Positions 1,974 to 23,993 of a DNA stretch of 64,000 nt are shown one piece after another. The stretch covers positions 537 through 64,536 of the forward strand of contig CAZKSJ010000002.1 of assembly GCA_964555515.1 (NCBI GenBank). Reading direction: 5' to 3'. Each line of letters begins with the position of its first letter. Position 1 is the first letter of the stretch. The notes beneath the pieces were generated by a model, which saw only the letters and a program-made list of their open reading frames with translations, did no database searches and was not told the DNA's origin. The DNA comes from an uncultured Pseudomonadales bacterium. GTDB taxonomy: Bacteria; Patescibacteriota; Microgenomatia; UBA1400; PJMF01. A program made the translations under genes and the position numbers.

Positions 1974-1983
1974 AAATGCTCCT

Positions 1984-3243
1984 TTATGCTACCCATAATC
2001 CTTGAATAAATAAGACCGTATTAATCAATAATAGTATACCGGAAAATATCCAAATCCAGCGCCAGCGTGGAAATTTATCGAGTTGAATGCCTGCCCAAAC
2101 AAAGACTGGAAATGCCACCAGGAGGTATCTGGGCATGCTGGAGAGAGTGCCAGTCGTTGTGGGGAGCAAGACCGCAAGCGTCGTAAAGATAAGCCAGGAG
2201 TGTTTTATGCGTTTCTCCTGCATCCACAGCCAACCAATGATGATCAGGAAACTTATCGTCAAGAAAAACTCTTGGGCGTAGGTCAGCCATGTCAAGCTGA
2301 AAGGTACTGTCATCATAATTTTTAGACCCCGCCAAAGAGTTTGCGGCAATAAGATCAGATGCTCTTGCCTGCCTGCCCCGAACTCTGCTTGGACATGCAA
2401 GAAATAGAGAGGATCGCGGAACTCTCCCCACAAAAACAACATGTAAATGCCAATGCCAACTAAACCGAGGAGTGAAGAAATGACTTGCTTAGGATGGCTG
2501 CGTAGTTGCTGAGATAGTAGCTGCCAGAACTTATTCAATTTTTGAGTGAAACTCTGCTCATTGCTCTTAAATACTCGGCTGATTAGTGACGATACGTTCA
2601 GTGCCTCCCACAGTAAAGCTGGTACTAAAAACACGCCCACGACCCTAGTCGCAGCTGCAGCGGCAGCCAACAACCCAGCTAACCACCACCCTTGGTTGCC
2701 ACTAGCATAAAAAGTGCTTATCACAAGTAGTAAAAATAATGACTCTGAGTAGACCGCACCATGAAAGAAGCTGGTGGGAAATAATAAGAGTGTGATGAGG
2801 GCTAGCCAGGCTACATTGGTAGAGAATTGTTGGGCAGTGAACTTAAAAAATACCACTCCCCATAACAGGAGGGCAATGTTGCTGATCAACAGACCACTGA
2901 CAATCGTGTTATCGAACAATCGATTCAAAACCATCATTAGGTAAGGATATCCTGGAAAAAATGCTTGAATGAGTCCTGTACCAATGTATCCTTTTTCTGC
3001 AATGGTAATGTAGTGGACGCCATCAAAGTTTGCCCAAGAGTAAAGCCACTGCGGCAAGTTATATTTGGGTAATAATTCTGTAGCATATGGAAAACTAGGC
3101 TGATACATTATCAACCATGGGGCAATTATGCCAATTAAGATAAGCAGTGTTCGCCAGCCCAACAGTAATCCCATCACGGCAGATAATTCACTTTTTTTAT
3201 TTTTTAGCATTTTTGAAAAACTCCCATGTGATGACGACGACAA
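1984..3243 (-). CDS. Polytopic membrane glycosyltransferase, PIG-V/GPI-mannosyltransferase-like.
   Basis: Many predicted TM helices. Loop motif WANFDGVHYITIAEKGY...AFFPGYP resembles the PIG-V family signature. The true start is probably an internal Met, because the first ~40 nt overlap the upstream gene. Confidence 0.45.
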   Translation of the reverse strand: MSSSSHGSFSKMLKNKKSELSAVMGLLLGWRTLLILIGIIAPWLIMYQPSFPYATELLPKYNLPQWLYSWANFDGVHYITIAEKGYIGTGLIQAFFPGYPYLMMVLNRLFDNTIVSGLLISNIALLLWGVVFFKFTAQQFSTNVAWLALITLLLFPTSFFHGAVYSESLFLLLVISTFYASGNQGWWLAGLLAAAAAATRVVGVFLVPALLWEALNVSSLISRVFKSNEQSFTQKLNKFWQLLSQQLRSHPKQVISSLLGLVGIGIYMLFLWGEFRDPLYFLHVQAEFGAGRQEHLILLPQTLWRGLKIMMTVPFSLTWLTYAQEFFLTISFLIIIGWLWMQEKRIKHSWLIFTTLAVLLPTTTGTLSSMPRYLLVAFPVFVWAGIQLDKFPRWRWIWIFSGILLLINTVLFIQGLWVA

Positions 3244-4879
3244 GTCCGCTGATTGCTAACAGAGAAACCCAATTACCGATTTGCCGCGCCCAAGTATGTT
3301 GGGTGAAGCTAGACTCTACGGTGTAAGTTCCTGGATCTAATTCATATGCCAGCCGCCCAGCAATTTGGTCATTATTAATGTGATTTGCTTGATACTTATT
3401 CCCTTGATCATCGATCACAGTTGTCTCCCAGCCTGGGAAGGCCATCGTTGGCTCCACAATCGTCGCTTTTTCAAAGATACGAACCTGATAGCGTCGGTGT
3501 GAGCCAAACCACTCCTCTTCCGAAAACTCTCCTTGCCCACCCACCAAAACTAGCTCCTTATCCCAGTTAGGCATCTGATCAAACTGAGCTGTGACTGGTA
3601 AATTTTCATTATTGGTGGAGGTTGATTGGGTAAAAGCATCATAATCCACATTGGTTCGGTGAAAAAAGTCGGCTGGTTGAGCAGCCACAGCGGTACCAAG
3701 TTGGATAGCTAAGCCAATCACCAATAGACTCCGTGCAAATCTCCCACCTTCTGCCCAGATCCAGACCATCGGCACGAGCAAGAGCATGGGCAAATAGAGT
3801 GATAATCGCCAGGGGAATTGGATGAAGTTGGCAAGTGGGATCAGCTGCCAAATCGGTTCAGTCTGTTTGAGCTGAAATAACACAACAAGCAAAGCAAAGA
3901 ACAGCAACACCATCACGAGCTGATGATGAACTCGACAACTCTTAATAATCCTCTGCCAACCAATTAGAACCAATCCCAGGAGGATGGATACTAAAAAGGG
4001 CCAACCAATCTGAAAAGAGAGACTGTCTACAACTCCTGGATAAGAGAAACCAAACTGAACTGGTGAAAACAGTAATTGATTAAACTTAGGAAAGTGTTGA
4101 GCAAATTGATCTGCATTTTTGGCCTGATCAAGCACGATCATTGATTTTTCTGCCAAAGCCGGCAACCAAAACCATAAGCTTAATAAAATACCAAGCACCA
4201 AACTACCTAGCCAAGTCAACAACTTGCGATAATTAGATCTCATCCTAAGCAGTGCGTAAATTCCTAAGATGGGCAGAGCAAAAACCGCGCTGATATTATG
4301 ACTGAGTAAAAAAGCGGCTGTCAGAACCGACCAAACTCCAAATTGCCGCCATTGCCATTGACGATTAGCCAAAATTGATTCTATGACCCACAGCATCCAG
4401 GGAAATAGAGCATAGGCCATCACTTCACCAATATTACCGCGAAAGTTAATTAAGTTGATCAAATAGATCGAACTCACCCAACTACTGATGGCGATCACGT
4501 TTGCCCATCTAGAACTCGATTTAAAAACCAGATTTAGCCACAAATAGCCCCCCACCGCTCCAAAAATGATCGACAGACTCATCAATGCTTTAAACGTTAC
4601 TTCATAATTCAACTTGATGAATGAACCAGGCAAAGAAAGTATATTTGCCAGCGGGTAGTTATAGTTGAAAACGGGGTAGCCATACCTATTCATCAAATTA
4701 GGCGCCCAACGTGGTGGCAGCTGACCCTCGCGCAAGGCAATTTTATAATTTGCAAAACGTGCCAAGTGATTTTCACCGTCGTGGGTGTAAGGTACACCAA
4801 TCTGCATGTAATTATGCAGTAAAAACCAAATTGCCAAGATGACTAACAGCCAGGGCCAATGGTTGCGGATAAATTTCAT
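3197..4879 (-). CDS. GT-C-fold integral membrane glycosyltransferase, YfhO/PTPS-related family (paralog 1 of 3).
   Basis: N-terminal polytopic domain with the conserved motif YTHDGENHLARF...GYPVFNYNYP. C-terminal soluble domain contains FPGW and ends in a TM anchor. Same architecture as the ORFs at 10049 and 23994. Confidence 0.5.
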   Translation of the reverse strand: MKFIRNHWPWLLVILAIWFLLHNYMQIGVPYTHDGENHLARFANYKIALREGQLPPRWAPNLMNRYGYPVFNYNYPLANILSLPGSFIKLNYEVTFKALMSLSIIFGAVGGYLWLNLVFKSSSRWANVIAISSWVSSIYLINLINFRGNIGEVMAYALFPWMLWVIESILANRQWQWRQFGVWSVLTAAFLLSHNISAVFALPILGIYALLRMRSNYRKLLTWLGSLVLGILLSLWFWLPALAEKSMIVLDQAKNADQFAQHFPKFNQLLFSPVQFGFSYPGVVDSLSFQIGWPFLVSILLGLVLIGWQRIIKSCRVHHQLVMVLLFFALLVVLFQLKQTEPIWQLIPLANFIQFPWRLSLYLPMLLLVPMVWIWAEGGRFARSLLVIGLAIQLGTAVAAQPADFFHRTNVDYDAFTQSTSTNNENLPVTAQFDQMPNWDKELVLVGGQGEFSEEEWFGSHRRYQVRIFEKATIVEPTMAFPGWETTVIDDQGNKYQANHINNDQIAGRLAYELDPGTYTVESSFTQHTWARQIGNWVSLLAISGLVVVITWEFFKNAKK

Positions 4880-5910
4880 GATAACACTTGCTTGTAAACC
4901 TTAATTGTATCTTCGGCAGTTTTCTTCCAGGTGAATCCAGCCGCCCAGTGGGCAGCATCAAGCAGCCACTGCTCTCGAGATCGATTAGACCAAGATAGTA
5001 CTTCCTTGACACCCTCGGCGATAGCGTCCGACAATGGCTCGACATAGATGGCGTGTGATCCGCCAACTTCTGGCAATGAACCGCGTTTGGTGGCAACTAC
5101 AGGCGTCTGGCAATGCATCGCCTCCAATACTGGCAAGCCAAATCCTTCCGATAAAGACGGCTGCACATAACAAAGCGCGCCATTATAAATTGCTGCTAAA
5201 TCGGCGTTATCTTCTAAGCCAATGGTACTGATAAAATGCACTCTATCCGCTAGTTTATTTTTACTCATCGCCAACTTGATAGCTTGCCACTCAGGTATAG
5301 ACTGCTCCCGAAAGTTTTTGCCAATACAGACCAGCGTTATACCAGTCGGCAGATCGGCCACTGCTTTGATCAATTCTGGCAAGTTTTTATTATAATTTAT
5401 ATCCCCAACATACAGGATATATTTTTTTGGAATTTGATATTTATTGCTAATGGTCTCAATTGAAGAGGCATTTCCCAAACTAATATTTGGGTTTGCTGCC
5501 AAAGGTACGACGTGCATCTTCTCCTGCCTAATCCGCAGCAGCTCGGCTATTTGTTGCTTGGAATACTCTGAATCAGTAATCACAGCCTGCGCAAACCATA
5601 AACTGAGCTCTTGGCGTAATAAATTAAAACTGCCCCGTAAACCAGGGTGATGGGCTTTTGGAAATTCAAGTGGGATGACGTCATGAATAGTTACCACTGT
5701 TTTCTTTGACCTGTTGATGGGCAAAGTCGCTTTAAATAGATCAAAATAAGGATAGTGAACTAAGTCAGCTTGCCACCAGTTGTCATGGGGTGAAGTAAGT
5801 ATTTCTACTTTTTCCTCACGCAAAGCATCAATCAAACATTGGGTATACCTGCCAATCCCTCTGATTTGATGGCCAGTATGCAAGGGCAAGGTGTCAATAT
5901 AAATTTTCAT
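4876..5910 (-). CDS. Glycosyltransferase family 4 (GT-B fold).
   Basis: C-terminal EGFGLPVLEAMHCQTPVV matches the GT4 E-x7-E/EAMA signature. Overlaps its neighbour by 4 nt (ATGA). Confidence 0.8.
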   Translation of the reverse strand: MKIYIDTLPLHTGHQIRGIGRYTQCLIDALREEKVEILTSPHDNWWQADLVHYPYFDLFKATLPINRSKKTVVTIHDVIPLEFPKAHHPGLRGSFNLLRQELSLWFAQAVITDSEYSKQQIAELLRIRQEKMHVVPLAANPNISLGNASSIETISNKYQIPKKYILYVGDINYNKNLPELIKAVADLPTGITLVCIGKNFREQSIPEWQAIKLAMSKNKLADRVHFISTIGLEDNADLAAIYNGALCYVQPSLSEGFGLPVLEAMHCQTPVVATKRGSLPEVGGSHAIYVEPLSDAIAEGVKEVLSWSNRSREQWLLDAAHWAAGFTWKKTAEDTIKVYKQVLS

Positions 5911-6695
5911 GCCTTAGACTTTTCTCTGAGTGCCCAAACCTTAAACAAAACAAACGGATGATGCAGGCTACTCATTAAAGCAAAAATAAAGCCGCTCATG
6001 CCGTCCACATAACCACGATGGTGAAAAAACATGGAAAACAGTGTTGAGATTGGTTTGACAATCAAATACTGCCAAATGGTTGATTTTTGGATTGGCAAAA
6101 GATCAAGGCTAACTCGAGTGGCTTCAAATGAGGTATAAGTATTAAATTTTCTCATGTAGGCACTAAAATTGGGATATGGGTAATGAAGTAAGTGACCCTG
6201 AGCAACTCCAATTGCGCCATCGACCGTCATTTGCTCATGCACATTCTGCTGTGGTAATCTAGCCTTGCCCCTGATGTACAATCTGATCACTTCATCTGGA
6301 TACTGACCGCCTTTAGTCAATACGCGCCCAAAGAAATGATTGTAGCGAGCAATTTTCCAGGCCACTGGATCTTGTTTGTAGCTACCCTGCGCCAACTGAG
6401 TGGCTAGATTAGTAATGAAATCAGCCAAGATATTTTCGACCACTTCGTCGGCATCGAGTTGAAGAATTAAATCTCCCGTAGCAGCATCCATGGCCAGCTG
6501 TTTATTAATGTGAAAGTTTGGCTTGTTGGTGGTAGCTATTACCTTAGCACCAAACTTTTTAGCAATTTCTACAGTTTGATCAGTGGATTCGCCATCGGCA
6601 ATCACAATTTCATCGGCAAACCTCTTCACACTCTCCAAGCATCGTCCTAGGTTTAGTGCTTCATTGTGAGTGGCGAGGACAACAGAAATTTTCAT
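5907..6695 (-). CDS. Glycosyltransferase family 2.
   Basis: N-terminal ISVVLATHNEALNLGRCLESV...IVIADGESTD, a typical GT2 (GT-A) start. Coupled to the upstream gene by a 4-nt overlap. Confidence 0.75.
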   Translation of the reverse strand: MKISVVLATHNEALNLGRCLESVKRFADEIVIADGESTDQTVEIAKKFGAKVIATTNKPNFHINKQLAMDAATGDLILQLDADEVVENILADFITNLATQLAQGSYKQDPVAWKIARYNHFFGRVLTKGGQYPDEVIRLYIRGKARLPQQNVHEQMTVDGAIGVAQGHLLHYPYPNFSAYMRKFNTYTSFEATRVSLDLLPIQKSTIWQYLIVKPISTLFSMFFHHRGYVDGMSGFIFALMSSLHHPFVLFKVWALREKSKA

Positions 6696-6719
6696 ATTAT
6701 TTTATTAACTATATTAGAC

Positions 6720-8345
6720 TTAGAACTGACTCAATTGCCAAGTGTCACCTGTCCATTCAACTAATAACTGCTCTTCATCTCGGTCAGCTGGCTGACCAAT
6801 AAAATGATATTGGGCTACTTGTTGACCATACCTAAAACCAATTCTATCAGGTGCTTGTCTAATCACCGAGGAGAAAAACTCTTCGGGAGTGATTTTTAGA
6901 TACCAACTGAGCAGAATATACTGGTAACCGCTAGGGTCGACAATGGCGACGGCTTTATCTTGCGACTGATCATCAACGCGTTTGATAAATTCATCAAAGT
7001 CCGACTGAAAAATAGTGGTTTGGTGTGATGGATAGCGAGTAAAGTAGGCGATTAAGTAACGGCTAAAACAAATCAAGCTGACCAAAGACAACCCGACAAA
7101 TATGGATAACTCAAGTTTTCTCTTAGATATTTTCCTTATCGTGGCTATTCTTGGCAAAATATCCGCGAATACCAAGCTGATAATGATCGGTATCCAGGCA
7201 AGAAATAATAAACTACGAGTGGTATGGGGAGCGTCAGCGGTGATGGTGGCTGGTGCTAGCGCTATGATCAACACATACAACGCGATCAGCATTCGACCAA
7301 GTGATGAATTCATCCAAGGCTGGGCTATTGATTTAAAAAATGATTTGTTACCGCGAACCCGGCCAATCAGGTGAGAACTCGCTCTGTACATGATCCAAAA
7401 GATAGAAACTATCAGCAGCGCATAGACCAACCAATTGATATGACCCCAACCAGGTATAGAGTGCCATGGATGCGCCCCACCATTCACAACCAAGAAGTTG
7501 ACACCAAAGCTCGCGATCACTCTTTCAATAATTAATCGCCCATAATAAACATATTGGTTCCCAAATAAATTTAACCAGATACCCGAGAATTGAGCTCTAT
7601 AGGATGGATAAGCAGTAACAATTGTTTCATCAGCAAAGATGGTGATAGCACTTTTTTGAGTAGTTAAGGGAGCGAGGATCATCCACACAGCCATGAAGAC
7701 AATTAGTAGTCCAATTGATGTCACCACCCAGTTTCGATAACTGCGAGCGCCACGCATCACCAATATTAAGACAGCAAAAAAAGGCATGAGTAGCAGGGGT
7801 GTGTTATAAGTCAACGAGCAAATGACCAATAAAATTAGGGCTAATAAATCTCGCCACCAGATAAACTTGCTGTTCATCAATAAGATGAGCGCAGAGATGA
7901 GAATCCCAAGAGCCAGGTTGGCTTCAAAAGCCATTCTTGAGTAAAAGAAAAATACGGGCGATGAAGCTAGAATCATGGCTGCCGCTAAAGACCAGATCTG
8001 ACTCAACTTTAATCTCCTGGCTAAGATATAGATCAGCGCTGGTAGGATTGAGCCCGCCATCACCGACGGTAGCCGGACTACCCAATCTGCAGCAGGCAAC
8101 GCTTTGAAGATTATGGCAAGTAGAAATGGATATCCTGGCAACTTGTAATCGCCAAATGATTCCAAAGCCAGTGGCCAGCTTCTACCCCACTCATCTTGTC
8201 CAGTTTTTGAGAGTAGAAGTCCGTTATAGGCCAAGGCTGCTTCATCTCGATTGAGAATGTTGGGATTTTGCTCAATCTGCCAAATCCGCAGGAAAAAACT
8301 CACTACGACTACACCCAAAACTAGCCAATTATGAATTGACTTCAT
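6720..8345 (-). CDS. GT-C membrane glycosyltransferase, ArnT/PMT-like (GT39/GT83-type; family A).
   Basis: Polytopic protein. The first periplasmic loop carries NRDEAALAYNGLLLSKTGQDEWG...ESFGDYKLPGYPF, the DE...GD motif of ArnT/PMT_2 enzymes. Confidence 0.75.
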   Translation of the reverse strand: MKSIHNWLVLGVVVVSFFLRIWQIEQNPNILNRDEAALAYNGLLLSKTGQDEWGRSWPLALESFGDYKLPGYPFLLAIIFKALPAADWVVRLPSVMAGSILPALIYILARRLKLSQIWSLAAAMILASSPVFFFYSRMAFEANLALGILISALILLMNSKFIWWRDLLALILLVICSLTYNTPLLLMPFFAVLILVMRGARSYRNWVVTSIGLLIVFMAVWMILAPLTTQKSAITIFADETIVTAYPSYRAQFSGIWLNLFGNQYVYYGRLIIERVIASFGVNFLVVNGGAHPWHSIPGWGHINWLVYALLIVSIFWIMYRASSHLIGRVRGNKSFFKSIAQPWMNSSLGRMLIALYVLIIALAPATITADAPHTTRSLLFLAWIPIIISLVFADILPRIATIRKISKRKLELSIFVGLSLVSLICFSRYLIAYFTRYPSHQTTIFQSDFDEFIKRVDDQSQDKAVAIVDPSGYQYILLSWYLKITPEEFFSSVIRQAPDRIGFRYGQQVAQYHFIGQPADRDEEQLLVEWTGDTWQLSQF

Positions 8346-8459
8346 ATTACTATCTTAGCATTAATTCATTCTCAGCTGGCATAAGCTCTGTGTTTACACT
8401 CCACATAAACACGTTTCATCAATACATTCCTGGCCGCTTAAGCTATAATTTTGGGTGAA

Positions 8460-10052
8460 ATGTTACGAACTAAGACTAATAAAATATACAAATTAATCAC
8501 CCAAACAAATATTTGGATCGATAAGGCTAGCTTTTTTCAACTTAGTGTCGTATTATTTTTCTTCTCTTTTTTTGTCCACACTGTGTACGCATTAGGTCAC
8601 AATACATTTTTACAAGATTCAGCACGAGACATCCTGATTGCAGAAAACCACTTGGCTAATCAAGAGTTGATCGTTAATTATGGCCCAAAAGCGAGCGTTG
8701 GCAACTTCTACCTTCCACCATTTTACTATCAACTGCATTTAATAGTGACAGGATTGGTACCATTTTTTCCCCTTGCCATGAGATGGGTGATATTATTTGT
8801 GGAATCTTTCACTCCTGTGATGATTTTTCTACTGTTAACACTATTCATACCAAAAAGATCTGCTTTCTTCATCAGTCTATTATATGTTTTATTCCATCAA
8901 GTCTTGATTTATTCAACCCAAAGCTGGAACCCAAATATGATTCCATTTTTCACAACCAGTTTTTTGGTATGTTGGCTGTATTATATTAAAAACCATGATT
9001 ATGGATTGATTTATTTAGCTTTATTAGCTCTCGCCATCTCACTACACCTGCATTATCAGACATTCATCTTATTGCCATTTGCCTTGATAGTTTGGACTTT
9101 TTCGTTTATCAAATTTAAGACTGCAAGAAAACATTTGCTCCTCAGCCCATGGGTAGCTGCCATCCCGTTTTTGCCTTATTTGTGGGCAGAGATAACCAAT
9201 TCATTTATTAATACCCAAGCAATAATTGCTTTCTTTTCTCAAGAGCATGCGCTCTATTATGATCGGGTTTCAAAACCCGCCTATGTGTTGACATATTTTC
9301 CCTCATTTATGGAAAGATTGATATTTAGCAAAGAAATGCCTTTTCATTTCATCGGCAGCTTACTATTTTTTGGTGGCTTTTCTATTGCTTTAATTAAATC
9401 TAAGAATAATATTATTCTAAGATGGTTGTTGTTCTATTTTGGTATGGCGTTTGTGATACTAAGAGTCTTCAAAGGTGACAAATTGGATTATTACTTAATG
9501 ACTTTGTTTATATTACCCACTTTTTTATTAGCTTGCTATCGATTGATCTCAACAAGATTGACGGTTATTTTGGGTTCAATTATGCTAATTTTAATACTAT
9601 GGTATTTACCGACGCTGAAAACACATAATTTTTATCGGGACCTAAAACAAATCGTGTCGTTTATTGAAATTAAATCACCCACTCAAGATATTCAGGTCGT
9701 TTTTCACGACTTGAGTAACGCCAATTATCTTTACTACGGACTACTTAAATTTAGCAATCTCAGCATAGTGCCAGCATCAACTACTTTGGTTGATCTATGT
9801 CCTAGTTATGAAGCACAGTGCGCCTGGGACGGGATAGCCATGTGCAAACCAGGAACCCCAGATGATGAAGAAGTTTTCTGGTATGCACTCGATGCCAAGT
9901 ACCACAACGACTATAAAGTAATCAGCTACAAAAAAATTGATGATAAGTTTCAGGTAGCAATTGGTCAAGTCAACCAACCCAGATCTTTGCCAAATCACCC
10001 TCAACAGCATGACGCATCATGGTATGGTAGTGACTTCTTGATTCCTTTATGA
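8460..10052 (+). CDS. GT-C membrane glycosyltransferase, ArnT-like family B.
   Basis: Polytopic protein. Motif QDSARDILIAENHLANQELIVNYGPKASVGNFYLPPFYY aligns with the ArnT DEARY...GDW loop. Paralogous to the ORFs at 43559 and 50801. The track start at 8451 is TTG; ATG at 8460 is more likely. Confidence 0.55.
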   Translation: MLRTKTNKIYKLITQTNIWIDKASFFQLSVVLFFFSFFVHTVYALGHNTFLQDSARDILIAENHLANQELIVNYGPKASVGNFYLPPFYYQLHLIVTGLVPFFPLAMRWVILFVESFTPVMIFLLLTLFIPKRSAFFISLLYVLFHQVLIYSTQSWNPNMIPFFTTSFLVCWLYYIKNHDYGLIYLALLALAISLHLHYQTFILLPFALIVWTFSFIKFKTARKHLLLSPWVAAIPFLPYLWAEITNSFINTQAIIAFFSQEHALYYDRVSKPAYVLTYFPSFMERLIFSKEMPFHFIGSLLFFGGFSIALIKSKNNIILRWLLFYFGMAFVILRVFKGDKLDYYLMTLFILPTFLLACYRLISTRLTVILGSIMLILILWYLPTLKTHNFYRDLKQIVSFIEIKSPTQDIQVVFHDLSNANYLYYGLLKFSNLSIVPASTTLVDLCPSYEAQCAWDGIAMCKPGTPDDEEVFWYALDAKYHNDYKVISYKKIDDKFQVAIGQVNQPRSLPNHPQQHDASWYGSDFLIPL

Positions 10053-11806
10053 ACAACATTAGAAATTTCATCAATTATTTCCATTTACTACCTTTGCTAA
10101 TCCTGATTTTACTGGGCTTGTATGGTATTCAAGCCCTGTTTCACCCAGGACTTTACAGTGCGCATGACATATGGCACCAAGTAGCGCGACTCTATCATTA
10201 CTCCGCGGCGGTAAGTGATGGGGCAACCTTGCCAACTTGGATCTCTACACTCGCCAATGGCTATGGCTATCCCTTATTTTACTTTTCTTATCACTTTCCT
10301 TGGCTGATGGGACTGCCCTTCATCTGGTTAGGATTTTCAATTTTTAGTACGCTAAAAATATTATTTGGTTTAGCCTTTATGGCTGCCGGTTTCGCTATGT
10401 ATTGGTTGGCTTTTGTCATCTTTAAAAATCGAATTGCAGCTCTAGCGGTTGCTGGTCTTTACCTAATTTCTCCTTATCATTTTTTCACAATCTTTGTATC
10501 AGCTTCGATTGGCACGGTCTTTCAGTTTGCTTTGTTACCCCTGATTGTGCTGGGTATTTTTCAAACCATTCGGGAACATAAAATGAGTGGAACATTACTG
10601 TTGGCAACTACAGCTGCTGCCAGTATTTTGTCCCACTTAATGACTTTTGTCTTTTTGGTACCTTATTTAACGATTTACACGTTGGTTTTATTAATTGAGC
10701 AGAGACATCAAACAATGCTGCTGTTTAAAAGCATTAAATTACTGTTCACTGCAGCCCTAATTGCCCTTGGCCTCAGCGCCTTTTATGTCATTCCCACCCT
10801 ACTTTACTTACCGCTGGTCAGAGCCGGCGAGGGTACCGCCAATTTTCAAACTCTCTACTTGGGTGGATTCGTCACGCTTAAGCAACTACTATACTCAACC
10901 TGGGGCTTCTCACCTATATCAGAAAATGCGGCTACGAGTGACATCTCTTTTCAAATTGGAATTGCCCAGTGGTTAATCATCGCTGCAACAGCCTTTTTAC
11001 TTAGCTTCTTTGCAATTCTGCGTCTATTAAATAATTATCGTCGACGGCGTGTGGAGCAATCCAAGCCTTTTATATTCCTAAGACGCATTCTTGATTTCAA
11101 GTTTTTAAGTAAATTCTGGGCAACAGCGTTAGTGATTGGCTCGCTACTCGGCTTGTCTATTTGGCTGATGCTGTCGTCCTCCATCCTAGTGTGGGATTTG
11201 ATCGCTCGCTATTTTACCCTCGACTTTCCGTTCCGTTACTTGATCGTGGCAGTGTTTCTCGCCTCGTTGTTGGCTGGTTTTGTGATTGGTTCATTAAGCA
11301 CACAGAGCCTAAAGCTATTTGGACTATTTTGCATTATTGTGATAGCACTTTACACCAACCGAAATCATATCAAAGTGAATATGTACACCGACTACGCTTT
11401 GCAAGAATATATTGGAGCAGAGTTGACCACAACTACTTTTCATGAGTACTTACCTATTGCGGCCGATTCTGGGAATTTGCAGCTTTCACAACCACAACTC
11501 ATCAAAGACATCCCGGCTGAAATTTTGTATACCTCGCCCACTAGGTTAGTAATTGGCGTTAATATTGACGGGTTGAGAAATGCTGAGGTGAGACAATTCG
11601 ATTTTCCCGGACAAAGAGTCTACATCAATGGCAAGTTGCTTGAACGCGAAATTGATCCAGGTAAATTAATTTTGTTCAAACTGCCAAAAGGTTATCACAC
11701 CATTGAAATTAGGTACCAAAATCCGCCCATCTATTACCTAGGACTGCTCACTTCCTCTGTTACAATTATCTTTGTCCTAATAGTTTTGCTAAGAAAGCCA
11801 AAATGA
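10049..11806 (+). CDS. GT-C-fold membrane glycosyltransferase, YfhO/PTPS-related family (paralog 2 of 3).
   Basis: Motif YSAHDIWHQVARLYHY...GYGYPLFYFSYHFP. C-terminal domain contains FDFPGQRVYINGKLL and ends in a TM anchor. Overlaps both flanking genes by 4 nt. Confidence 0.5.
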   Translation: MNNIRNFINYFHLLPLLILILLGLYGIQALFHPGLYSAHDIWHQVARLYHYSAAVSDGATLPTWISTLANGYGYPLFYFSYHFPWLMGLPFIWLGFSIFSTLKILFGLAFMAAGFAMYWLAFVIFKNRIAALAVAGLYLISPYHFFTIFVSASIGTVFQFALLPLIVLGIFQTIREHKMSGTLLLATTAAASILSHLMTFVFLVPYLTIYTLVLLIEQRHQTMLLFKSIKLLFTAALIALGLSAFYVIPTLLYLPLVRAGEGTANFQTLYLGGFVTLKQLLYSTWGFSPISENAATSDISFQIGIAQWLIIAATAFLLSFFAILRLLNNYRRRRVEQSKPFIFLRRILDFKFLSKFWATALVIGSLLGLSIWLMLSSSILVWDLIARYFTLDFPFRYLIVAVFLASLLAGFVIGSLSTQSLKLFGLFCIIVIALYTNRNHIKVNMYTDYALQEYIGAELTTTTFHEYLPIAADSGNLQLSQPQLIKDIPAEILYTSPTRLVIGVNIDGLRNAEVRQFDFPGQRVYINGKLLEREIDPGKLILFKLPKGYHTIEIRYQNPPIYYLGLLTSSVTIIFVLIVLLRKPK

Positions 11807-12522
11807 AAGTGATCGCCGTCATGCCCGCATTCAATGCGGCAGAGACCCTTGAAAAAACAGTGAAAGACATCCCAAAGGGAATTGTTGACCAGATTATTTT
11901 GGTTGACGATAATAGTTCTGATCAGACAGTCAAACTTGCCCGGAAGTTAGGTCTACAAGTGATTAAGCACCCACAAAACCGTGGTTATGGTGGTAATCAA
12001 AAAACTTGCTACACCCATGCACTCTCTGAAGGCGCCGATGTCGTGGTGATGATTCATCCCGATTATCAATATGATAGTAGTTTAACTAAGGAGATGGTTT
12101 TGCCCATCATGAACGGTAGAGTGGATGTGATGCTTGGCTCAAGAATTCGCAGTCGCGAGGAAGCCTTGGCGGGGGGCATGCCACTTTACAAATATTTTGG
12201 GAATAGATTTTTGACCCTGACTGAAAACTTATTGCTTGACCGAAACTTGTCTGAGTATCACACTGGCTTCCGAGCATTTCACAAAAATATTTTGAAAAAG
12301 TTGCCCTTCCATAAATACTCAGACGACTTTGTGTTTGATTCGCAAATCTTGTTTGGCACCATTGCCTTAAAGGCTAAAATAGGCGAAATTCAAGTGCCCG
12401 TCAGGTACTTTGAGGAGGCTTCGTCAATTAATTTTATGAGGTCATCCATTTATGGTTTGTCAATTTTGAGAGACTTGGGGTTATACGTCATCACTGACGG
12501 CAAGTGGTTTTTAAATAAATAG
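11803..12522 (+). CDS. GT2 polyprenol-phosphate sugar synthase (DPM1/GtrB/CsbB-like).
   Basis: N-terminal VIAVMPAFNAAETLEKTV...IILVDDNSSDQT and a short soluble GT2 of 239 aa. Translationally coupled (ATGA) to the upstream YfhO-like gene, the same pairing as the Bacillus csbB-yfhO module. Confidence 0.65.
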   Translation: MKVIAVMPAFNAAETLEKTVKDIPKGIVDQIILVDDNSSDQTVKLARKLGLQVIKHPQNRGYGGNQKTCYTHALSEGADVVVMIHPDYQYDSSLTKEMVLPIMNGRVDVMLGSRIRSREEALAGGMPLYKYFGNRFLTLTENLLLDRNLSEYHTGFRAFHKNILKKLPFHKYSDDFVFDSQILFGTIALKAKIGEIQVPVRYFEEASSINFMRSSIYGLSILRDLGLYVITDGKWFLNK

Positions 12523-12531
12523 CAGTTGCAG

Positions 12532-14292
12532 TTAATTTCTAGAAATTGCGGCAATCACATACTCCTCATTTTCTGAATCGATATACCGAGACTCGTTAAC
12601 AATCATTATGTCATTATCGAGTGTGAGTTTTGTCCAATCATTGGCTCTCATTACCACGATCGATTTGTCCAAATCAGGCCATCTTGGTAAACCTTCATTA
12701 ACATGATAGATCCCAAATCTAGTCGTCGCAAAATCCTGATCGAAATCTGATCTGGCTGTGCTGTTTATGACGGGAAAATTGTCATAGTCAGGTTGACCAG
12801 CAATCCATAGATACATTCTTGTATTTACCCCCCAAAAAAACACTTCTGTCTGATCGGTGTTCAGGGCTTGTGATTGCTCCAACAGAAATTGGTCGCGCTC
12901 TGCCCAAGCTCCTCTACTCAAACTTTGATATGGTTTCTGATAATAGTAGGCAAACTCTACAACAGCAAAGATCAACCAAATCAACCATCCTATACCTACT
13001 ATTTTCATACCCAATTGGCCAAATCGACGCATTATGAAGAATATGAAGGAATGTAAGCCCACTCCAATAATGATACTGAGCGGCACCAATGCATTTAGTG
13101 AACGTAGCGCATGAGGAGTAGTATTGGGGACAGCAGCTGGTAATAAAGCAACCATCCACCAAATGAACAATATCAAACCCATGGCACGATGTTTGGTGGC
13201 TAACTCGTAGATCCCGCAAACAAACACTGGTAAAAATGGTAGTAAAAATAAACCATGAGCGCCAGTACCATGACGGAGGTTTTCATCACCGTTTAAAAAT
13301 AGAAAATTGAAGTCTAAAAAATCAGCATAGTTAGTTGCTAGCTGTCTCACGAATAACCAATCGCGATGAAAAATTAGCCGGTCAAAGCGACTATTACCAG
13401 CGAGTTCGCGATAGACATTCTGAGTTAGTACTAGATCACCCCGATCATTTAGAACGGAGTCTGTACTCAAGCGGTACTGTTCTGAAGCAGCTGCGAGTGG
13501 AGAGTAGGTCTGGGGTAATAAAAGCATATAAAAACCTATTAGAGGGAACAAAATCGTGAGGAAGATCTTAACGAAAATATTTGAGGTAGTTCGGTTCCTA
13601 GATGCTAGGTGCCGCGTTTGCCATAACTGATAGAACGAAATTGAAACGAATACAGCAGGGGCTACAAATCTAACTGAGTAATAAGTGTAAGTGCTGGCAG
13701 CCATTAACAATACACTTACTAATCGCCACCAACCGTTTCTGAGACTTAATAGGAGCGCATAGATAGACAAAGCCAGTAATAATTGAGCTAGATGTCCTTC
13801 AAACCCAGCTCTAGAAAAGGTCATTGACCAAGGACTGACAGCCACTACCATTGCAATAGCTACAGCCAACCAACGGTGCGTGATATACCACTCTTTGAGT
13901 GGTATATTTAAATCCCGTTTGAAGTTGCGCCAGCGCCACAACTCTAAGCCGATTAATGGCGTGATAAAGATTGTGAATAAACCAGCTAATAGGCTTGGAA
14001 CTCGAACTACCCATTGCTCATCGCCAAAGAGAGCTACCGCCACGCTGAGCAGCCAAATATAAACGGGTTGTTTATAGTCACCATATGATAAGAAGATGGG
14101 CTGTAACCAGCTTTCACCATGCATATCTTGACCTGTTGCCACCACAGATTTAGCATCAACTAACATCGCCATTTCATCGATATAGAGCGTGGCGGAATTT
14201 GATTTGAAATTGTAGATGCGTAATCCTAGTCCAATCGTCATGACCAGGAAAATTAAACAAAAAAATAAAATTGTTGAGTTATGCTTTGTCAT
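12532..14292 (-). CDS. GT-C membrane glycosyltransferase, ArnT/PMT-like (family A).
   Basis: Loop motif LYIDEMAMLVDAKSVVATGQDMHGESW...LSYGDYKQPVYIWL. N-terminal hydrophobic start MTKHNSTILFFCLIFLV. Confidence 0.75.
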   Translation of the reverse strand: MTKHNSTILFFCLIFLVMTIGLGLRIYNFKSNSATLYIDEMAMLVDAKSVVATGQDMHGESWLQPIFLSYGDYKQPVYIWLLSVAVALFGDEQWVVRVPSLLAGLFTIFITPLIGLELWRWRNFKRDLNIPLKEWYITHRWLAVAIAMVVAVSPWSMTFSRAGFEGHLAQLLLALSIYALLLSLRNGWWRLVSVLLMAASTYTYYSVRFVAPAVFVSISFYQLWQTRHLASRNRTTSNIFVKIFLTILFPLIGFYMLLLPQTYSPLAAASEQYRLSTDSVLNDRGDLVLTQNVYRELAGNSRFDRLIFHRDWLFVRQLATNYADFLDFNFLFLNGDENLRHGTGAHGLFLLPFLPVFVCGIYELATKHRAMGLILFIWWMVALLPAAVPNTTPHALRSLNALVPLSIIIGVGLHSFIFFIMRRFGQLGMKIVGIGWLIWLIFAVVEFAYYYQKPYQSLSRGAWAERDQFLLEQSQALNTDQTEVFFWGVNTRMYLWIAGQPDYDNFPVINSTARSDFDQDFATTRFGIYHVNEGLPRWPDLDKSIVVMRANDWTKLTLDNDIMIVNESRYIDSENEEYVIAAISRN

Positions 14293-14305
14293 AGGGCATG
14301 TAATT

Positions 14306-16027
14306 TCATTTTCTTAAGATATACCAAATCGGTTGGCCATCTAAGCCAACAACTTTGGTGACTGCAAAGTTCCCCAACGCTGCTTCATCCACCTTACTAG
14401 CTAGCACCACTCCTACTTCACCAACTGTCAACTGACCAAGGTCCACTTCCCGGTCAAAGATCATCTTTTTATAAGTAATTAATTCTCCTTGATCAAATTC
14501 TTCATTTGTTGCTGATGCCTGCACCAAGCTGGGGTCTTCATTGGTGTAGAACCAAACGTACATCGCTGGTCTACCCAAACTTCTCGCGAAGCGAATTGGT
14601 TTACCTGCGGCGATGTCGGCTGATAGCTCGCTAACTAGTTGTTGATAGCCATACTGCCATTCATGCTGAGATTGAACTGGATAGATGTATAAGTAATAAC
14701 GAAAAAAAGCTACCAATTCCAGTAAATAAAACCCAATAATGATAGCAACCAGCGCCAGTTTCGTCGATGATTGAAGAACTTGATAAAAAACGGACTGCTT
14801 GCTGAAATACTTGATTCCTAGTTGTTGAATTAGGTGCGTACTTTCCTTGACAAAAGAACTCAGTCCCAAGGAAATGATCAGTAAAACTGCTGGCAAGGCT
14901 GGTAAAATACGGAGAGCATGGGGATTGGGCTTGGCCATCGTAGCTGGCAACAACGCCACCAAGAGCCAACCCCAAATTAACCAATCCACAGTTCTCCTCC
15001 GCTTCATCATCAACAGAACCCCCCAAATGAGAAAAACAGTTTCGAAGTGGTAAATCAAACCCGTGAAGCTAGTACCATGACGAAGATTGACATCACCGCT
15101 TACTGCCCAAAAACTCAGCGAGGAATAACTGAATAGATTCTCTACAATTGTTCTGGCCATGATGACATAACGGTGGTAAAAAATTCTAGAACCAATTGAG
15201 TTTGCTGATGCATCGCGCAATTGATTGCTAGTGGTAATTACCTCCAAATCACTAGTGATACCAGTCTCTTTGAACCGCTGGGTAATTAAATTTGAATTGG
15301 GATTGAGCAATGTCACAAGTAGCGGCAACATTAAGACTGCAACCAATATGGCTGCCACAAATGGATAAACCAAAGCTTGATGTTGCCAAACAATCTTCTT
15401 ATTGCACCAGTCTGCGCGTCGTTCCCATAATGAGACCACCAATAAGATCATGACTAATAATGGTACCATTAGCCGGGCAGAATGATATGCATAAGGCGCT
15501 AACCCCAAACTTATCACAGCCAATAAAAATTGCCATGTCCCTCCTATTTTGACTGCTCGCCACCACCAGGCCACTCCCCAAGTTATCAACACTGTGGCTA
15601 AGTGTGCCTCCCAAGCTCCTCTAGAAAAATGAATTGCCCAGGGAGAAATTGCCGTCATAAACAGTGCCCAGGCCGCAGGAAATTTAAACTGCCGGGCTAA
15701 GAAATAAATACCCATCATCATGAAGACACCAAGCATCACTCCAGAACTTCTTACCGCCAGATCAGTTAAGCAGAGTATTTTAATAAATGGCACTAAGTAA
15801 TAAAAATACAAACTTGGTTTCCAATCACCAAAGGATTCGAAGGCAAGGATGGGCCAAGGATGACCGTGATGATCTTTACCTGTTTCTAGAATTGAAAAAG
15901 CATCATATCCCAGCGCTACTTCTTCCCAATAAAGTGCTGGTGGTGCACTAGTTACTTGATAAGCTCTCAAGAATAAGCCAAACACTAAGATCGCCAATAT
16001 TAACCAAAATATTTTATTAGTTGGCAT
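14306..16027 (-). CDS. GT-C membrane glycosyltransferase, ArnT/PMT-like (family A).
   Basis: Loop motif ALYWEEVALGYDAFSILETGKDHHGHPW...ESFGDWKPSLYFYY. Start set at Met17 (MPTNKIFWLIL) to avoid a 59-nt overlap with the upstream paralog. Confidence 0.7.
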   Translation of the reverse strand: MPTNKIFWLILAILVFGLFLRAYQVTSAPPALYWEEVALGYDAFSILETGKDHHGHPWPILAFESFGDWKPSLYFYYLVPFIKILCLTDLAVRSSGVMLGVFMMMGIYFLARQFKFPAAWALFMTAISPWAIHFSRGAWEAHLATVLITWGVAWWWRAVKIGGTWQFLLAVISLGLAPYAYHSARLMVPLLVMILLVVSLWERRADWCNKKIVWQHQALVYPFVAAILVAVLMLPLLVTLLNPNSNLITQRFKETGITSDLEVITTSNQLRDASANSIGSRIFYHRYVIMARTIVENLFSYSSLSFWAVSGDVNLRHGTSFTGLIYHFETVFLIWGVLLMMKRRRTVDWLIWGWLLVALLPATMAKPNPHALRILPALPAVLLIISLGLSSFVKESTHLIQQLGIKYFSKQSVFYQVLQSSTKLALVAIIIGFYLLELVAFFRYYLYIYPVQSQHEWQYGYQQLVSELSADIAAGKPIRFARSLGRPAMYVWFYTNEDPSLVQASATNEEFDQGELITYKKMIFDREVDLGQLTVGEVGVVLASKVDEAALGNFAVTKVVGLDGQPIWYILRK

Positions 16028-17648
16028 GTTCACCAGTGTAATAAACTTCAAACCGAACTTGACCATCACTACCATAAACTAAATGTGTGGCTTCATGCTG
16101 ATCAAGATTGAACTTGGGAGTACTGATCACCAAGGTATTGTGCCTTAATAGATCAGATCCTGACAAACTATTGGTAAACTCATATTTATAAAGTGATCCA
16201 CCTCGATAAGCAATGGGAGAAGTCTTTCGAACAAACAGAGCAAAAATGTATGGCTGACCATAGTCGTCGCTGACCAGAATTTTATCTACTGGAGCTTGTC
16301 CATATTCACCTCTTTCATAAGCCGTTGCTAGCTGCATCGCCTCAAGATAGCCATCTTGGAACTCTGCAGCACTGACTCTCGCGAAATTATTAAGATAATC
16401 GTGCCAGTAATGCATAAATATTAATGATTCGATCAAGAAAGTCATACCTACAAGCAATCGAAAACTTATATCCAGAGATATTTTTTTCGATAACCAAGTG
16501 ACCGTAGCATCGACTCCATAAATTGCTAGTAAAATAAATCCAGGCAAGGCAAATAGGGCACGATTGCTGTGTGGTACAGCTTCAGATGAAAGAGCCGCCG
16601 GAATTAGTCCGAAGATCACAAAAGCGATACCGTATCCTAACAAACTGTATTTCATCTGCTGATAATGAGCTAATCGAAATAGAATCATCAGTAACGCAAT
16701 CATGCTAAATAAGAACGTCATGGGCAGTAATACCCCCCAACTACCAGAACCATGCCGATATGAATCAGTCTGACCCAATACTAGAAATTGGGGAGATAAA
16801 TGGGCGACCAGATTTTCTGCAAAAACTTTAATAGTGGTAACGGCAGTATAACCTTGATTAGTGATGAGGACACCAGCTCTGGTCGCCCCATGTCCAAAAA
16901 CACCATCATAAATAAGTGGCAACACAAGAATTATGCCGATCATCAAGCCACATATCAGCCAACGCCACTCCCTCCTCACCCACTCGCGTTGCTGATACCC
17001 ATACCAAAATACAAACAATGGTACAAATATTTTTGCACTATGATAAGTATAGAGCGCGGCAGCCCAAGCAATTGAGCTCATCAGTAACAAACCTATTTTT
17101 TGATATTTATTTAATTGTGCAAACCTTTCAATCATCTGGGCTGCCGCTACCAATCCAACTAGAAAAAAAGCTAGCGCCATGCCTGATTCAAACCCCACCC
17201 GAGAGTAATGAACATGCCATGGCACAGTGGCGATGAGAAACAAACCAAGTAGTGTTTGCCACTTTTTGGCATGATTTTCAGCTAATATGTACGTTAGAGC
17301 TCCAAATGCAAGAACGGTGACCATGCCCGCTAGGGCAAAAGGCAGTCTTACTACCCATAACTTAAGCCCCAACAAAATGGTAAACACGCCGTTGATGTAA
17401 ATTGCTGCGGGAGCCTTGTAATCTCCAAAAGACTGAAACGAGATAGGAATTTTGTGTAACCACTCATCTCTTCTGGTGGTAATAACCGCGTGACCATTAT
17501 AACCAATGGCTGCTTCATCCCAGGTCATACCGTGAGGAATAACGCCCAATTGATAGAACCTGACTAAAACCGCCAACAAGATGATGAGGCTGCCAAGCAC
17601 AAAAAACCACTGCTGCTGAGACTTATAAAAGGGTTTAAGTAATTTCAT
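16017..17648 (-). CDS. GT-C membrane glycosyltransferase, ArnT/PMT-like (family A).
   Basis: Loop motif GMTWDEAAIGYNGHAVITTRRDEWLHKIP...QSFGDYKAPAAIYIN. Start set at Met17 (MKLLKPFYKSQQQWFFVLGSL), which matches the N-termini of the paralogs. Confidence 0.7.
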   Translation of the reverse strand: MKLLKPFYKSQQQWFFVLGSLIILLAVLVRFYQLGVIPHGMTWDEAAIGYNGHAVITTRRDEWLHKIPISFQSFGDYKAPAAIYINGVFTILLGLKLWVVRLPFALAGMVTVLAFGALTYILAENHAKKWQTLLGLFLIATVPWHVHYSRVGFESGMALAFFLVGLVAAAQMIERFAQLNKYQKIGLLLMSSIAWAAALYTYHSAKIFVPLFVFWYGYQQREWVRREWRWLICGLMIGIILVLPLIYDGVFGHGATRAGVLITNQGYTAVTTIKVFAENLVAHLSPQFLVLGQTDSYRHGSGSWGVLLPMTFLFSMIALLMILFRLAHYQQMKYSLLGYGIAFVIFGLIPAALSSEAVPHSNRALFALPGFILLAIYGVDATVTWLSKKISLDISFRLLVGMTFLIESLIFMHYWHDYLNNFARVSAAEFQDGYLEAMQLATAYERGEYGQAPVDKILVSDDYGQPYIFALFVRKTSPIAYRGGSLYKYEFTNSLSGSDLLRHNTLVISTPKFNLDQHEATHLVYGSDGQVRFEVYYTGEHAN

Positions 17649-17667
17649 GCAGCTCCATTGTAGCGGT

Positions 17668-18588
17668 CTATGATATAGCCTGTGAAGCAGTTGCACGGCT
17701 TCTGTGCCACCACCAATAAGGCCGCCAGATTAAAAATGATAACCTTTGCCAGAAATGACCATTCTTCCAAGTAAAACGATCGGCATTGCGCCAGCTAATT
17801 TTTTGCATTTCCTGAGCTGTCCATACTGATTGATGGGTGCTTTCATGTTTATGATAGATAATTGCTTTCGGCTCAAAGATTATTTGCAGTCCTCTTCGGC
17901 GAGCTCTAAATGACAAGTCAATATCTTCCCAATATGCCGGATAATATCTTTGGTCAAAGCCGCGCAGCGTCTGCCAATCATTTAGTCTAAACATGGAGCT
18001 ACCACCACTCGCCCAAGCAGTACTGCCATATTCAAAATTAGCTGCCTTGGCATGCTTAAACAAGCCCATTTCAAACCATAGTAAATTTTTACCACTCGGG
18101 TTAGATCCTGCTTGATCATCAAATTCCAAAGCCGTTACCGCAAACACTTTTGGATTTGACTCTAAAACCCGAGCCAAGTTGATAAAAGCTGCCGGATGTG
18201 GAGACGCATCATTATTCAACAACATGACCATTTCGTGACAGGCCAAAGATACTCCCAAGTTTGCGGCCCCTCCAAAACGCAGATTGCTTTCATTGGCAAC
18301 CAACATCAAATCAAGATGTTTTCCTTCAGCAGAATATGCTCCAGCATAATACCTGAGTTTGAGCAAATGTGGATCTGGAAAATAACCTTTAAGCAAATTA
18401 AATTCTGGTGATCTAGATTTTTTGAGCTTGAATTCACTACATAACCACGCAACTGTCTGATCATTGCTAGCATCATCACTAATGATTAACTGACTTCCAA
18501 ACGGTAGTGCTTTTAGCACAGCTGGCAGGTGGGTATGCAATAACTTTAATCCGTTAAAAGTCGGAATCACACAAGACACTTTAGTCAT
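17668..18588 (-). CDS. Glycosyltransferase family 2.
   Basis: CVIPTFNGLKLLHTHLPAVLKAL...IISDDASNDQT is a GT2 N-terminus. Start set at Met8 to avoid overlapping the upstream GT4 gene. Confidence 0.7.
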   Translation of the reverse strand: MTKVSCVIPTFNGLKLLHTHLPAVLKALPFGSQLIISDDASNDQTVAWLCSEFKLKKSRSPEFNLLKGYFPDPHLLKLRYYAGAYSAEGKHLDLMLVANESNLRFGGAANLGVSLACHEMVMLLNNDASPHPAAFINLARVLESNPKVFAVTALEFDDQAGSNPSGKNLLWFEMGLFKHAKAANFEYGSTAWASGGSSMFRLNDWQTLRGFDQRYYPAYWEDIDLSFRARRRGLQIIFEPKAIIYHKHESTHQSVWTAQEMQKISWRNADRFTWKNGHFWQRLSFLIWRPYWWWHRSRATASQAIS

Positions 18589-21431: not shown

Positions 21432-21485
21432 TTGTTTATTATATACCTGTTATTATTATTCAATTAGGTGCTAGATATCAATCTA

Positions 21486-23991: not shown

Positions 23992-23993
23992 AA

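Follow-up and report, generated by a model that had tools for sequence, protein, structure and literature searches.

An overlapping GT-C/GT2 gene pair from the cell-wall glycan locus of a member of the Microgenomatia: a putative two-enzyme module for transmembrane glycosylation

Glycosylation by way of lipid-phosphate sugars follows an operating principle which is already established for Firmicutes, mycobacteria, enterobacterial phages and eukaryotes and holds no surprise for the specialist: a glycosyltransferase (GT) of the GT-A type acts as synthase, followed by a flippase and a GT-C enzyme. In Streptococcus pyogenes, the GacI/GacJ/GacK/GacL system ("type b") decorates the group A rhamnose polysaccharide with GlcNAc side chains; a GT-A enzyme without transmembrane (TM) helices makes the C55-P-sugar and a polytopic GT-C transfers the sugar outside. 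PpgS (Rv3631) of Mycobacterium tuberculosis, which is associated with Rv3632 and Rv3779 and makes polyprenyl-P-GalNAc for arabinogalactan, is, like GacI, a natural TM-less synthase. CsbB/YfhO of Bacillus subtilis and GtrB/GtrC (YfdH/YfdI) of enterobacterial prophages are GT-A/GT-C pairs encoded in one operon, whose lipid-P-sugar is made inside and used outside. Members of the YfhO family possess approximately 13 TM helices and a large extracytoplasmic domain between the last two. We analyzed a stretch of 64,000 nucleotides (nt) of an uncultured Microgenomatia bacterium (contig CAZKSJ010000002.1, positions 537 to 64,536; hereafter the window), in which a gene for a GT-C-like membrane protein of 585 amino acids (aa; 10049..11806) overlaps a gene for a GT2 of 239 aa (11803..12522). 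With a probability of roughly 65%, this pair is a two-enzyme transmembrane glycosylation module, in which the GT2 makes a polyprenyl-phosphate sugar inside and the GT-C, on the outer side, attaches it to a protein or a wall polymer.

The segment 8460..12522 is best explained as one three-gene operon within a cell-wall glycan locus of this bacterium, a member of the candidate phyla radiation. According to the open reading frame table of the window, the genes 8460..10052, 10049..11806 and 11803..12522 follow each other on the plus strand. The first one encodes a polytopic GT-C-like protein of 530 aa; its reading frame opens at TTG 8451 and has the first ATG at 8460. The second encodes a predicted PF10131-like membrane glycosyltransferase of GT-C fold with approximately 12 TM helices, and the third a TM-less GT2 of what we call the HxDxQY subfamily, a putative polyprenyl-phosphate sugar synthase. 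At both junctions the downstream start codon overlaps the preceding stop codon by 4 nt, reading ATGA (10049..10052 and 11803..11806, plus strand); the three reading frames and two overlaps given by the initial annotation were thus confirmed on the sequence. A 4-nt overlap is the commonest junction in bacterial operons. The same two overlaps are present in the orthologous locus L004 (62% identical), a close relative whose gene order is identical throughout. Among the 28 species representatives sharing the order of the GT-C and GT2 genes, for which distances were computed with the nearest in-frame start, the genes overlap in 24 (by 4 nt in 15 loci, by 8 to 17 nt in nine), while the remaining four show gaps of 7 to 19 nt. 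Since the overlap has been kept in 24 of 28 loci, it is not a local accident. The ATGA overlaps stand for co-transcription and probably for coupled translation, but for nothing more exotic.

The divergent intergenic region ahead of the operon comprises 106 bp and contains a perfect TATAAT hexamer (8444..8449, plus strand), possibly the -10 element of the operon. As consensus scans of the region revealed no enrichment of promoter-like or terminator-like sites over shuffled sequences, this assignment is weak. The hexamer ends 1 nt before the alternative start codon TTG 8451 and 10 nt before ATG 8460, and because of this proximity the mRNA from which the first gene is translated may have hardly any leader or none. 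At its other end, the operon lies 9 nt from the stop codon of the convergent gene at 12532.

To what extent the two genes belong together can be seen from their neighbourhood in other genomes. A GTDB scan with one genome per species yielded 66 loci encoding a relative of the membrane protein, 62 of which had enough flanking sequence. A GT2 orthologue is adjacent in 48 of these 62 loci, in three arrangements: directly downstream on the same strand (28 loci), directly upstream on the same strand (15 loci, Gottesmanbacteria type) or directly downstream in convergent orientation (five loci, Daviesbacteria type). In four loci, the GT2 gene is one gene away. Because adjacency persists through three rearrangements, a functional link is strongly supported, and co-occurrence across relatives, which had been proposed as a check of the pair, was indeed found. 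A search from the GT2 side covered 80 metagenome loci; in 66 of them a GT2 had been called together with one or more genes next to it. A protein with at least five TM helices adjoins the GT2 in 32 of the 66, on the same strand in 29 of these 32, and many such loci fall outside the candidate phyla radiation. A GT2 "fusion" of 722 aa in the metagenome locus L108 was discarded as a spurious long open frame on a high-GC contig.

Within the loci of the same order, the GT2 proteins are 69-80% identical to that of the window, the GT-C proteins only 35-41%. The L108 homologue still shares 62% identity with the GT2, and the closest named relatives of the L108 protein belong to Gemmataceae (Planctomycetes), where they are annotated only as "glycosyltransferase family 2". 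This asymmetry of conservation would fit universal substrates for the GT2 and variable acceptors for the GT-C. Homologues of both proteins occur in Patescibacteria, namely in Pacebacteria, Microgenomates, Daviesbacteria, Woesebacteria, Gottesmanbacteria and related groups. A number of contigs (L007, L009-L014, L020, L024, L026 and others) have a Microgenomatia-like gene content but are titled Pseudomonadales, Gammaproteobacteria, Vitreimonas sp. or Limisphaerales; such titles ("uncultured Pseudomonadales", "uncultured Gammaproteobacteria" etc.) suggest that these metagenome-assembled genomes were taxonomically mislabelled.

The 585-aa protein had initially been annotated as YfhO-like. Membership in the YfhO family had to be given up, as the protein did not match any Pfam or NCBIfam entry at E<=0.01 and did not match YfhO (PF09586) even at E<=10. 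Among 36 aligned homologues (E<=0.01 for PF10131), 19 matched PF10131 (best 9.4e-11), while only two matched YfhO, weakly (best 1.5e-4), and two DUF6541. Many homologues are already annotated with PF10131 in precomputed data, and a paralogue in the window (3197..4879) matches it at 7.4e-14; for the 585-aa protein itself, PF10131 is the sole weak match, with no more than 8 bits (E = 1.2), the gathering cut-off being 26.4. PF10131 (PTPS_related) is a GT-C clan entry, a family without assigned function, and as it has no characterized member, belonging to it does not reveal a function.

Neither the 585-aa protein nor its profile obtained more than chance matches among PDB sequences, which is why the fold was taken from the predicted model. 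The GT-C comparison gave values of 22.3 for Pmt4, 19.3 for STT3B, 19.0 for Pmt2, 18.3 for AglB, 17.5 for AftD, 17.4 for AftA, 16.9 for PglB and 16.3 for ArnT. The model is polytopic, and its first outer loop contains an acidic residue that is conserved, as expected of the GT-C superfamily. It is at this place that GT-C enzymes usually have their catalytic acidic residue. The first TM helix is predicted to comprise residues 13-31, and nine residues after it, on the outer face, the segment A38-H-D40-I-W-H43 follows (codons 10160..10177, plus strand; from homologue alignment and model). D40, I41, W42 and H43 are invariant among the 36 homologues, and H39-D40 is invariant in the three paralogues of the window (3197..4879, 10049..11806 and 23994..25805), which are only 23-26% identical. 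By analogy to other GT-C enzymes, the H39-D40 loop is the presumable catalytic site. Near its C-terminus the protein has some 120 residues (437-556) on the outer side, including a predicted beta-sandwich (490-556), and a last TM helix (560-582). Judged by the model, the 585-aa protein is a GT-C that resembles a reduced YfhO in layout but stands outside the YfhO family.

In sequence and predicted fold, the GT2 is nearest to the polyprenyl-phosphate glycosyltransferases (PPGT) DPMS, ArnC, GtrB and PpgS. The match to PF00535 (2.8e-21) extends over the entire protein; the best NCBIfam matches are AglJ (1.8e-21), PpgS (5.1e-19) and a Dol-P-hexose transferase (1.7e-14), and 200 of the 226 profile positions of the PpgS model, which represents a TM-less enzyme, could be aligned. 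The sole PDB sequence match at E<=0.001 is DPMS of Pyrococcus furiosus (5mlz; 9e-7). When PDB was searched with the family profile, DPMS and ArnC were the only ones among the matches listed that span the catalytic domain (residues ~3-170), the others covering approximately 60-110 residues. The predicted structure (pLDDT 84) revealed ArnC (1.8e-12), DPMS (7.8e-12) and GtrB (2.8e-11) as top Foldseek matches, all of them solved polyprenyl-phosphate glycosyltransferases.

Residues of the GT2 were compared one by one with those of DPMS, Escherichia coli ArnC and YfdH/GtrB, the roles of the reference residues being taken from the structure papers on DPMS and GtrB (PMC5526996, PMC4728340). The DPMS metal ligands D91 and Q93 are retained as D87 and Q89. 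They are part of the sequence H85-P-D87-Y-Q89-Y90 (codons 12055..12072, plus strand; HMMER alignment to 5mlz), the counterpart of DADLQH/DADLQD in DPMS and GtrB, which is invariant in 25 orthologues; D87 is, in addition, shared by all of ArnC, GtrB/YfdH and the two further PPGT-like GT2s. The HPDYQY-type motif occurs once in the window. R114 of the motif GSR (codon 12142..12144, plus strand; alignment to DPMS and GtrB) corresponds to R117 of DPMS, R122 of GtrB and R147 of DPM1, the arginine for the acceptor phosphate, which has been described as "universally conserved" among lipid-phosphate GTs (PMC5526996, PMC4728340). It is likewise invariant in the 25 orthologues and present in ArnC, YfdH and the two other PPGT-like GT2s. 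At the position of GtrB D157 the protein has E151, a conservative replacement that is invariant in the family and has as aligned counterparts D154 in DPMS and an Asp in both ArnC and the GacI-like GT2. K130 and N134 align with R131 and S135 of DPMS, and Y90 replaces its H94. As D89 and H94 of DPMS contact the mannose (PMC5526996, PMC4728340), their replacement by H85 and Y90 suggests that the sugar probably differs from the mannose of DPMS.

The GT2 does not have a TM helix, but its predicted helices 128-145 and 211-231 lie at the positions expected for the membrane interface. A TM-less DPMS (deletion of 230-352) still reaches the membrane and is as active as the wild type, and GacI and PpgS lack TM helices as well; hence, the missing TM domain is no strong objection to a role at the membrane.

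Further information on the GT2 came from its fused relatives. A HMMER scan of 1.84 billion representatives yielded 656 GT2 relatives at E<=1e-30, of which 30 long ones were read. All 30 contain the motif H-x-D-x-Q-Y/F, and the fused relatives are 46-58% identical to the GT2. In P0367, the GT2 is joined to a GtrA/DPMS TM domain (5.7e-23), in P0382 and P0390 to GT87 GT-C domains, which probably also holds for the partial sequence P0405, while P0378 (together with PA14), P0384 and P0397 contain other domains with six to ten TM helices. Such fusions would be expected of an enzyme that makes a lipid-P-sugar and of one that uses it. Instead of a membrane domain, however, a soluble extension is present in approximately 18 of the 30. 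An S-adenosylmethionine (SAM) methyltransferase (Methyltransf_23) was confirmed by Pfam in P0365 and P0368, the two that were scanned, and several others are similar; two further long relatives contain a HAD phosphatase or a nucleotidyl transferase. An apparent class-I SAM methyltransferase, soluble and with a Cys motif resembling a zinc ribbon, is fused at either end in P0365, P0368, P0380, P0385, P0387, P0392, P0395, P0425 and others.

Computation thus provides the structure of the genes, both folds, the key residues that have been kept, the adjacency and overlap found again in other loci, and the fused domains of relatives. From these features we infer the lipid acceptor, the membrane attachment of the GT2 and the use of precisely its donor by the GT-C. 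The GT2 would be located at the cytoplasmic face of the membrane, held there probably by helices 128-145 and 211-231 and perhaps by its GT-C neighbour, and would move one sugar from a nucleotide sugar onto undecaprenyl (polyprenyl) phosphate. A flippase would then turn the lipid-linked sugar to the outside, where the 585-aa GT-C would use it to glycosylate a surface polymer or protein. In this step the His39-Asp40 loop would act as the catalytic site and the outer beta-sandwich may help in acceptor binding. The initial annotation had proposed this logic, a GT2 loading a lipid and a GT-C consuming the donor; it is supported computationally by synteny and residues, whereas the family labels need correction.

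As had been stated before, the pair is embedded in a much larger locus. A rhamnose-type, cell-wall glycan locus extends over roughly 30 kb (~1..29,700) and contains a gene of the NAD-dependent epimerase/dehydratase family, GT4 and several GT2 genes, a Wzx/MOP flippase (22426..24075), an LCP ligase (25793..26950) and the dTDP-rhamnose genes RmlBCD (27213..29733). Nine GT-C-like membrane proteins are encoded in the first ~30 kb and three more further along; the about 12 genes start at 1984, 3197, 6720, 8460, 10049, 12532, 14306, 16017, 23994, 43559, 46918 and 50801 (1984..52342). This density is very high for 64 kb, and the genes include the three paralogues of the 585-aa family as well as four of one PMT_2-like family. 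The product of the upstream gene 8460..10052 has no match in a Pfam search, but its assignment as a GT-C was corroborated by hhalign, which related its family profile to PMT_2-type GT-C families of related loci with probabilities of 99.4%, 98.2% and 97.9% and to the 585-aa family with 95%. Homologues of this gene accompany the GT-C/GT2 pair in only seven related loci and it therefore lies outside the conserved core.

The GT2 of the pair is not the only candidate synthase of the window. At 52355..53554, the minus strand encodes a GT2 of canonical type that continues into a GtrA/DPMS TM domain, so that the GT2 at 11803..12522 is not the sole source of donor for the many GT-C enzymes of this genome. 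Next to it, a PMT_2 GT-C gene (50801..52342, minus strand) overlaps a gene for a TM-less GT2 of 258 aa (50028..50804, minus strand) by 4 nt. The idea of one synthase feeding every GT-C of the locus was abandoned in view of this second GT2-GtrA synthase and the further overlapping GT-C/GT2 pair (50801/50804). The genes belong to a second glycosylation module (50028..56781, minus strand) with upstream genes for a GDP-mannose 4,6-dehydratase, an epimerase/reductase and a UDP-glucose dehydrogenase.

In related loci, other units were observed. A three-gene unit comprises a GT-C of 389 aa, a GacI/PpgS-like GT2 with the motif DADGQH and a DUF2304 protein (GacJ/Rv3632-like), e.g. at 9481..11684 of L050; it occurs in L010, L014, L039, L041, L047, L049-L051, L054, L057-L061 and L070. 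The window has a homologue of the 389-aa GT-C (1984..3243) without the DADGQH GT2 and DUF2304 genes, and tblastn did not detect any DUF2304 (GacJ-type) homologue in it. Loci of the Gottesmanbacteria type (L039-L063 and L070; ~2800..7600 in L050) have a fixed unit of four genes, in the order NAD-dependent epimerase, FAD amine-oxidase-like oxidoreductase of 491 aa, HxDxQY GT2 and GT-C. In DprE1/DprE2, an oxidase and a reductase epimerize a lipid-linked sugar, and the FAD oxidoreductase and epimerase beside the HxDxQY GT2 recall an epimerization of this type. The gene for the FAD oxidoreductase of these loci is absent from the window, and for this reason the idea of such an epimerization was dropped.

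Several findings weigh against the pair being a two-enzyme module for a polyprenyl-phosphate sugar. No GT2 gene was found within 6 kb in 10 of the 62 loci, six of which contain the most distant membrane homologues (<=28% identity). No GtrA-type flippase gene adjoins the pair. All scores of the GT2 for curated families are far under the cut-offs, e.g. 77 versus 325 bits, and Foldseek ranks the soluble glucosyl-3-phosphoglycerate synthase (GpgS) nearly equal to the lipid-phosphate enzymes (5.7e-11, TM-score 0.70), so that the fold alone leaves the acceptor unsettled. The first Asp of the DxD motif is replaced by His (H85) and the motif reads H-P-D. Furthermore, the acceptor-loop motif RxxGxSK, which contains R200 in GtrB and R202 in DPMS, is absent from the alignment and has VPVRYFxEASSINF in its stead; MAFFT placed the canonical RxxGxSK of ArnC, YfdH and the GT2 at 52355 in a gap. 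As a substitute of the acceptor-loop Arg, R201 is no more than possible, in a region that was modelled with low confidence. The two helices at interface positions are only moderately amphipathic (hydrophobic moment 0.33-0.34, mean hydrophobicity 0.18-0.30). Relatives also carry the canonical TM-less DADGQH GT2 (PpgS model 5.7e-41) with its DUF2304 partner; since this GacI/PpgS-like enzyme exists besides the HxDxQY enzyme, the latter is a separate subfamily and not the local GacI. Finally, the commonest fusion partner, the soluble SAM methyltransferase, was not predicted and is not explained by a role as lipid-phosphate synthase. The alignment of the DxD and acceptor residues thus had a mixed outcome. 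What stands of the assignment as DPM1/GtrB-like are the residues D87, Q89, R114 and E151 shared with DPMS and GtrB; the architecture of CsbB and GtrB does not hold, as the TM helices, the first Asp of DxD and RxxGxSK are missing. TM-less DPM1, GacI and PpgS are better analogues.

Three other explanations were considered, all of which are less well supported. The GT2 might add a sugar to an undecaprenyl-diphosphate-linked oligosaccharide or another membrane acceptor, with the GT-C receiving its donor from another synthase, e.g. the one encoded at 52355..53554, and adjacency reflecting no more than a shared pathway. The many GT2 and GT4 genes, the Wzx-type flippase and the LCP ligase would indeed fit a pathway of lipid-PP-linked repeat units, another part of the window encodes a canonical synthase, relatives own GacI-like enzymes together with DUF2304, and both the DxD and the acceptor-loop motifs of the GT2 are non-canonical. 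However, 62% identity between the candidate phyla radiation and Planctomycetes would be unexpected for transferases of variable glycans, the best neighbours in sequence and fold are lipid-monophosphate synthases, with the PpgS model aligned nearly throughout (200/226), and fusions to GtrA and GT87 are typical of synthases and users of lipid-P-sugars. We therefore regard this explanation as unlikely, albeit the most probable of the three.

The 585-aa protein could, alternatively, serve chiefly as anchor, activator or flippase of the TM-less GT2, an idea that partly overlaps the preferred reading. Ppm2 has such a role for Ppm1, as GacJ and Rv3632 have for GacI and PpgS. In favour of this role, the subunits of a complex are often encoded by genes with coupled translation, the GT2 possesses neither a TM helix nor a DUF2304 partner nearby, and the YfhO study raised the possibility that a GT-C flips the lipid intermediate. 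For a mere anchor, though, a complete GT-C architecture with an invariant outer His-Asp loop and a beta-sandwich would be excessive, and TM-less DPMS is active without any anchor, which makes this role very improbable. Least probable of all is a GT2 whose acceptor, as for GpgS or mannosyl-3-phosphoglycerate synthase (MpgS), is a small, soluble and phosphorylated compound and which thus starts a pathway for methylated oligosaccharides or compatible solutes, the membrane neighbour being unrelated or acting later. The Foldseek score of GpgS, close to those of ArnC, DPMS and GtrB, the weak N-terminal profile matches to GpgS and MpgS and the soluble extensions of ~18 of the 30 long relatives (two Pfam-confirmed SAM methyltransferases; HAD phosphatase, nucleotidyl transferase) can be put forward for it. 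On the other hand, the match to GpgS is limited to the nucleotide-binding half (residues 2-104), the gene lies inside a cell-wall glycan locus, and the overlap with the GT-C gene, the three gene orders and the fusions to membrane domains would be left unexplained.

Returning to the two-enzyme module, a more far-reaching idea may be put forward, albeit a rather doubtful one: HxDxQY GT2s might form a large, strongly conserved clade of TM-less lipid-phosphate synthases that dock on their cognate GT-C without GacJ/DUF2304, the complex making and consuming one donor. Docking is suggested by the near-universal start/stop overlap and the natural GT2-GT87 fusions. The donor of such a complex would perhaps be an unusual or methylated sugar, since methyltransferase fusions are frequent. 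In the two-enzyme reading, a known type of system would be built here from two uncharacterized subfamilies, the PF10131-like GT-C and the HxDxQY GT2, which are targets for simple biochemistry, and HxDxQY GT2s are widespread well beyond the candidate phyla radiation. Bacteria of this radiation are uncultured and their envelopes almost unexplored, so that matching donors to GT-C enzymes is a first step to reading their glycan machinery.

In comparison to the Gac system, the window likewise encodes a TM-less GT-A enzyme, which by analogy would make the lipid-linked sugar, and a polytopic GT-C; in both cases the locus is one for a rhamnose polysaccharide and includes a flippase of the Wzx type (in the window RmlBCD, 27213..29733, and Wzx, 22426..24075). 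What separates it from the Gac system are the absence of a DUF2304 (GacJ) partner, which in relatives follows the other, DADGQH GT2, the motif HPDYQY and the PF10131-like GT-C. PpgS is, like the GT2, a TM-less enzyme of approximately 230-240 aa feeding a GT-C, if the analogy holds. The GT2 reaches, however, only 69 bits against an equivalog cut-off of 370 bits, lacks an Rv3632/DUF2304 partner and differs in its motif. To our knowledge, the GT-C gene of M. tuberculosis is not adjacent to that of PpgS. Among solved structures, that of P. furiosus DPMS (5mlz), an enzyme considered here together with human DPM1, is nearest in sequence; D91, Q93 and R117 are kept and putative interface helices are predicted at equivalent positions, while D89 and H94 are changed to H85 and Y90 and the context of R202 in the acceptor loop is not kept. 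With CsbB/YfhO and GtrB/GtrC, the pair shares the encoding of GT-A and GT-C in one operon, and the gtrA-gtrB-gtrC genes of E. coli also overlap by 4 nt. Much as in YfhO, the outer domain is predicted between the last two TM helices, but it is smaller (~120 aa, compared to a loop of 389 aa in B. subtilis YfhO). CsbB and GtrB possess two C-terminal TM helices, DxD and RxxGxSK, none of which is present in the GT2; moreover, the GT-C gene comes first, the YfhO entry of Pfam is not matched and a gtrA gene is not adjacent. PF10131 is the best family for 19 of the 36 homologues, yet the 585-aa protein itself scores only E = 1.2 with it. Thus, the closest characterized analogues are GacI/GacL, PpgS/Rv3779 and CsbB/YfhO, and the module differs from them in the HxDxQY motif, a GT2 without TM helices or GacJ partner, a PF10131-like GT-C and a reversed gene order.

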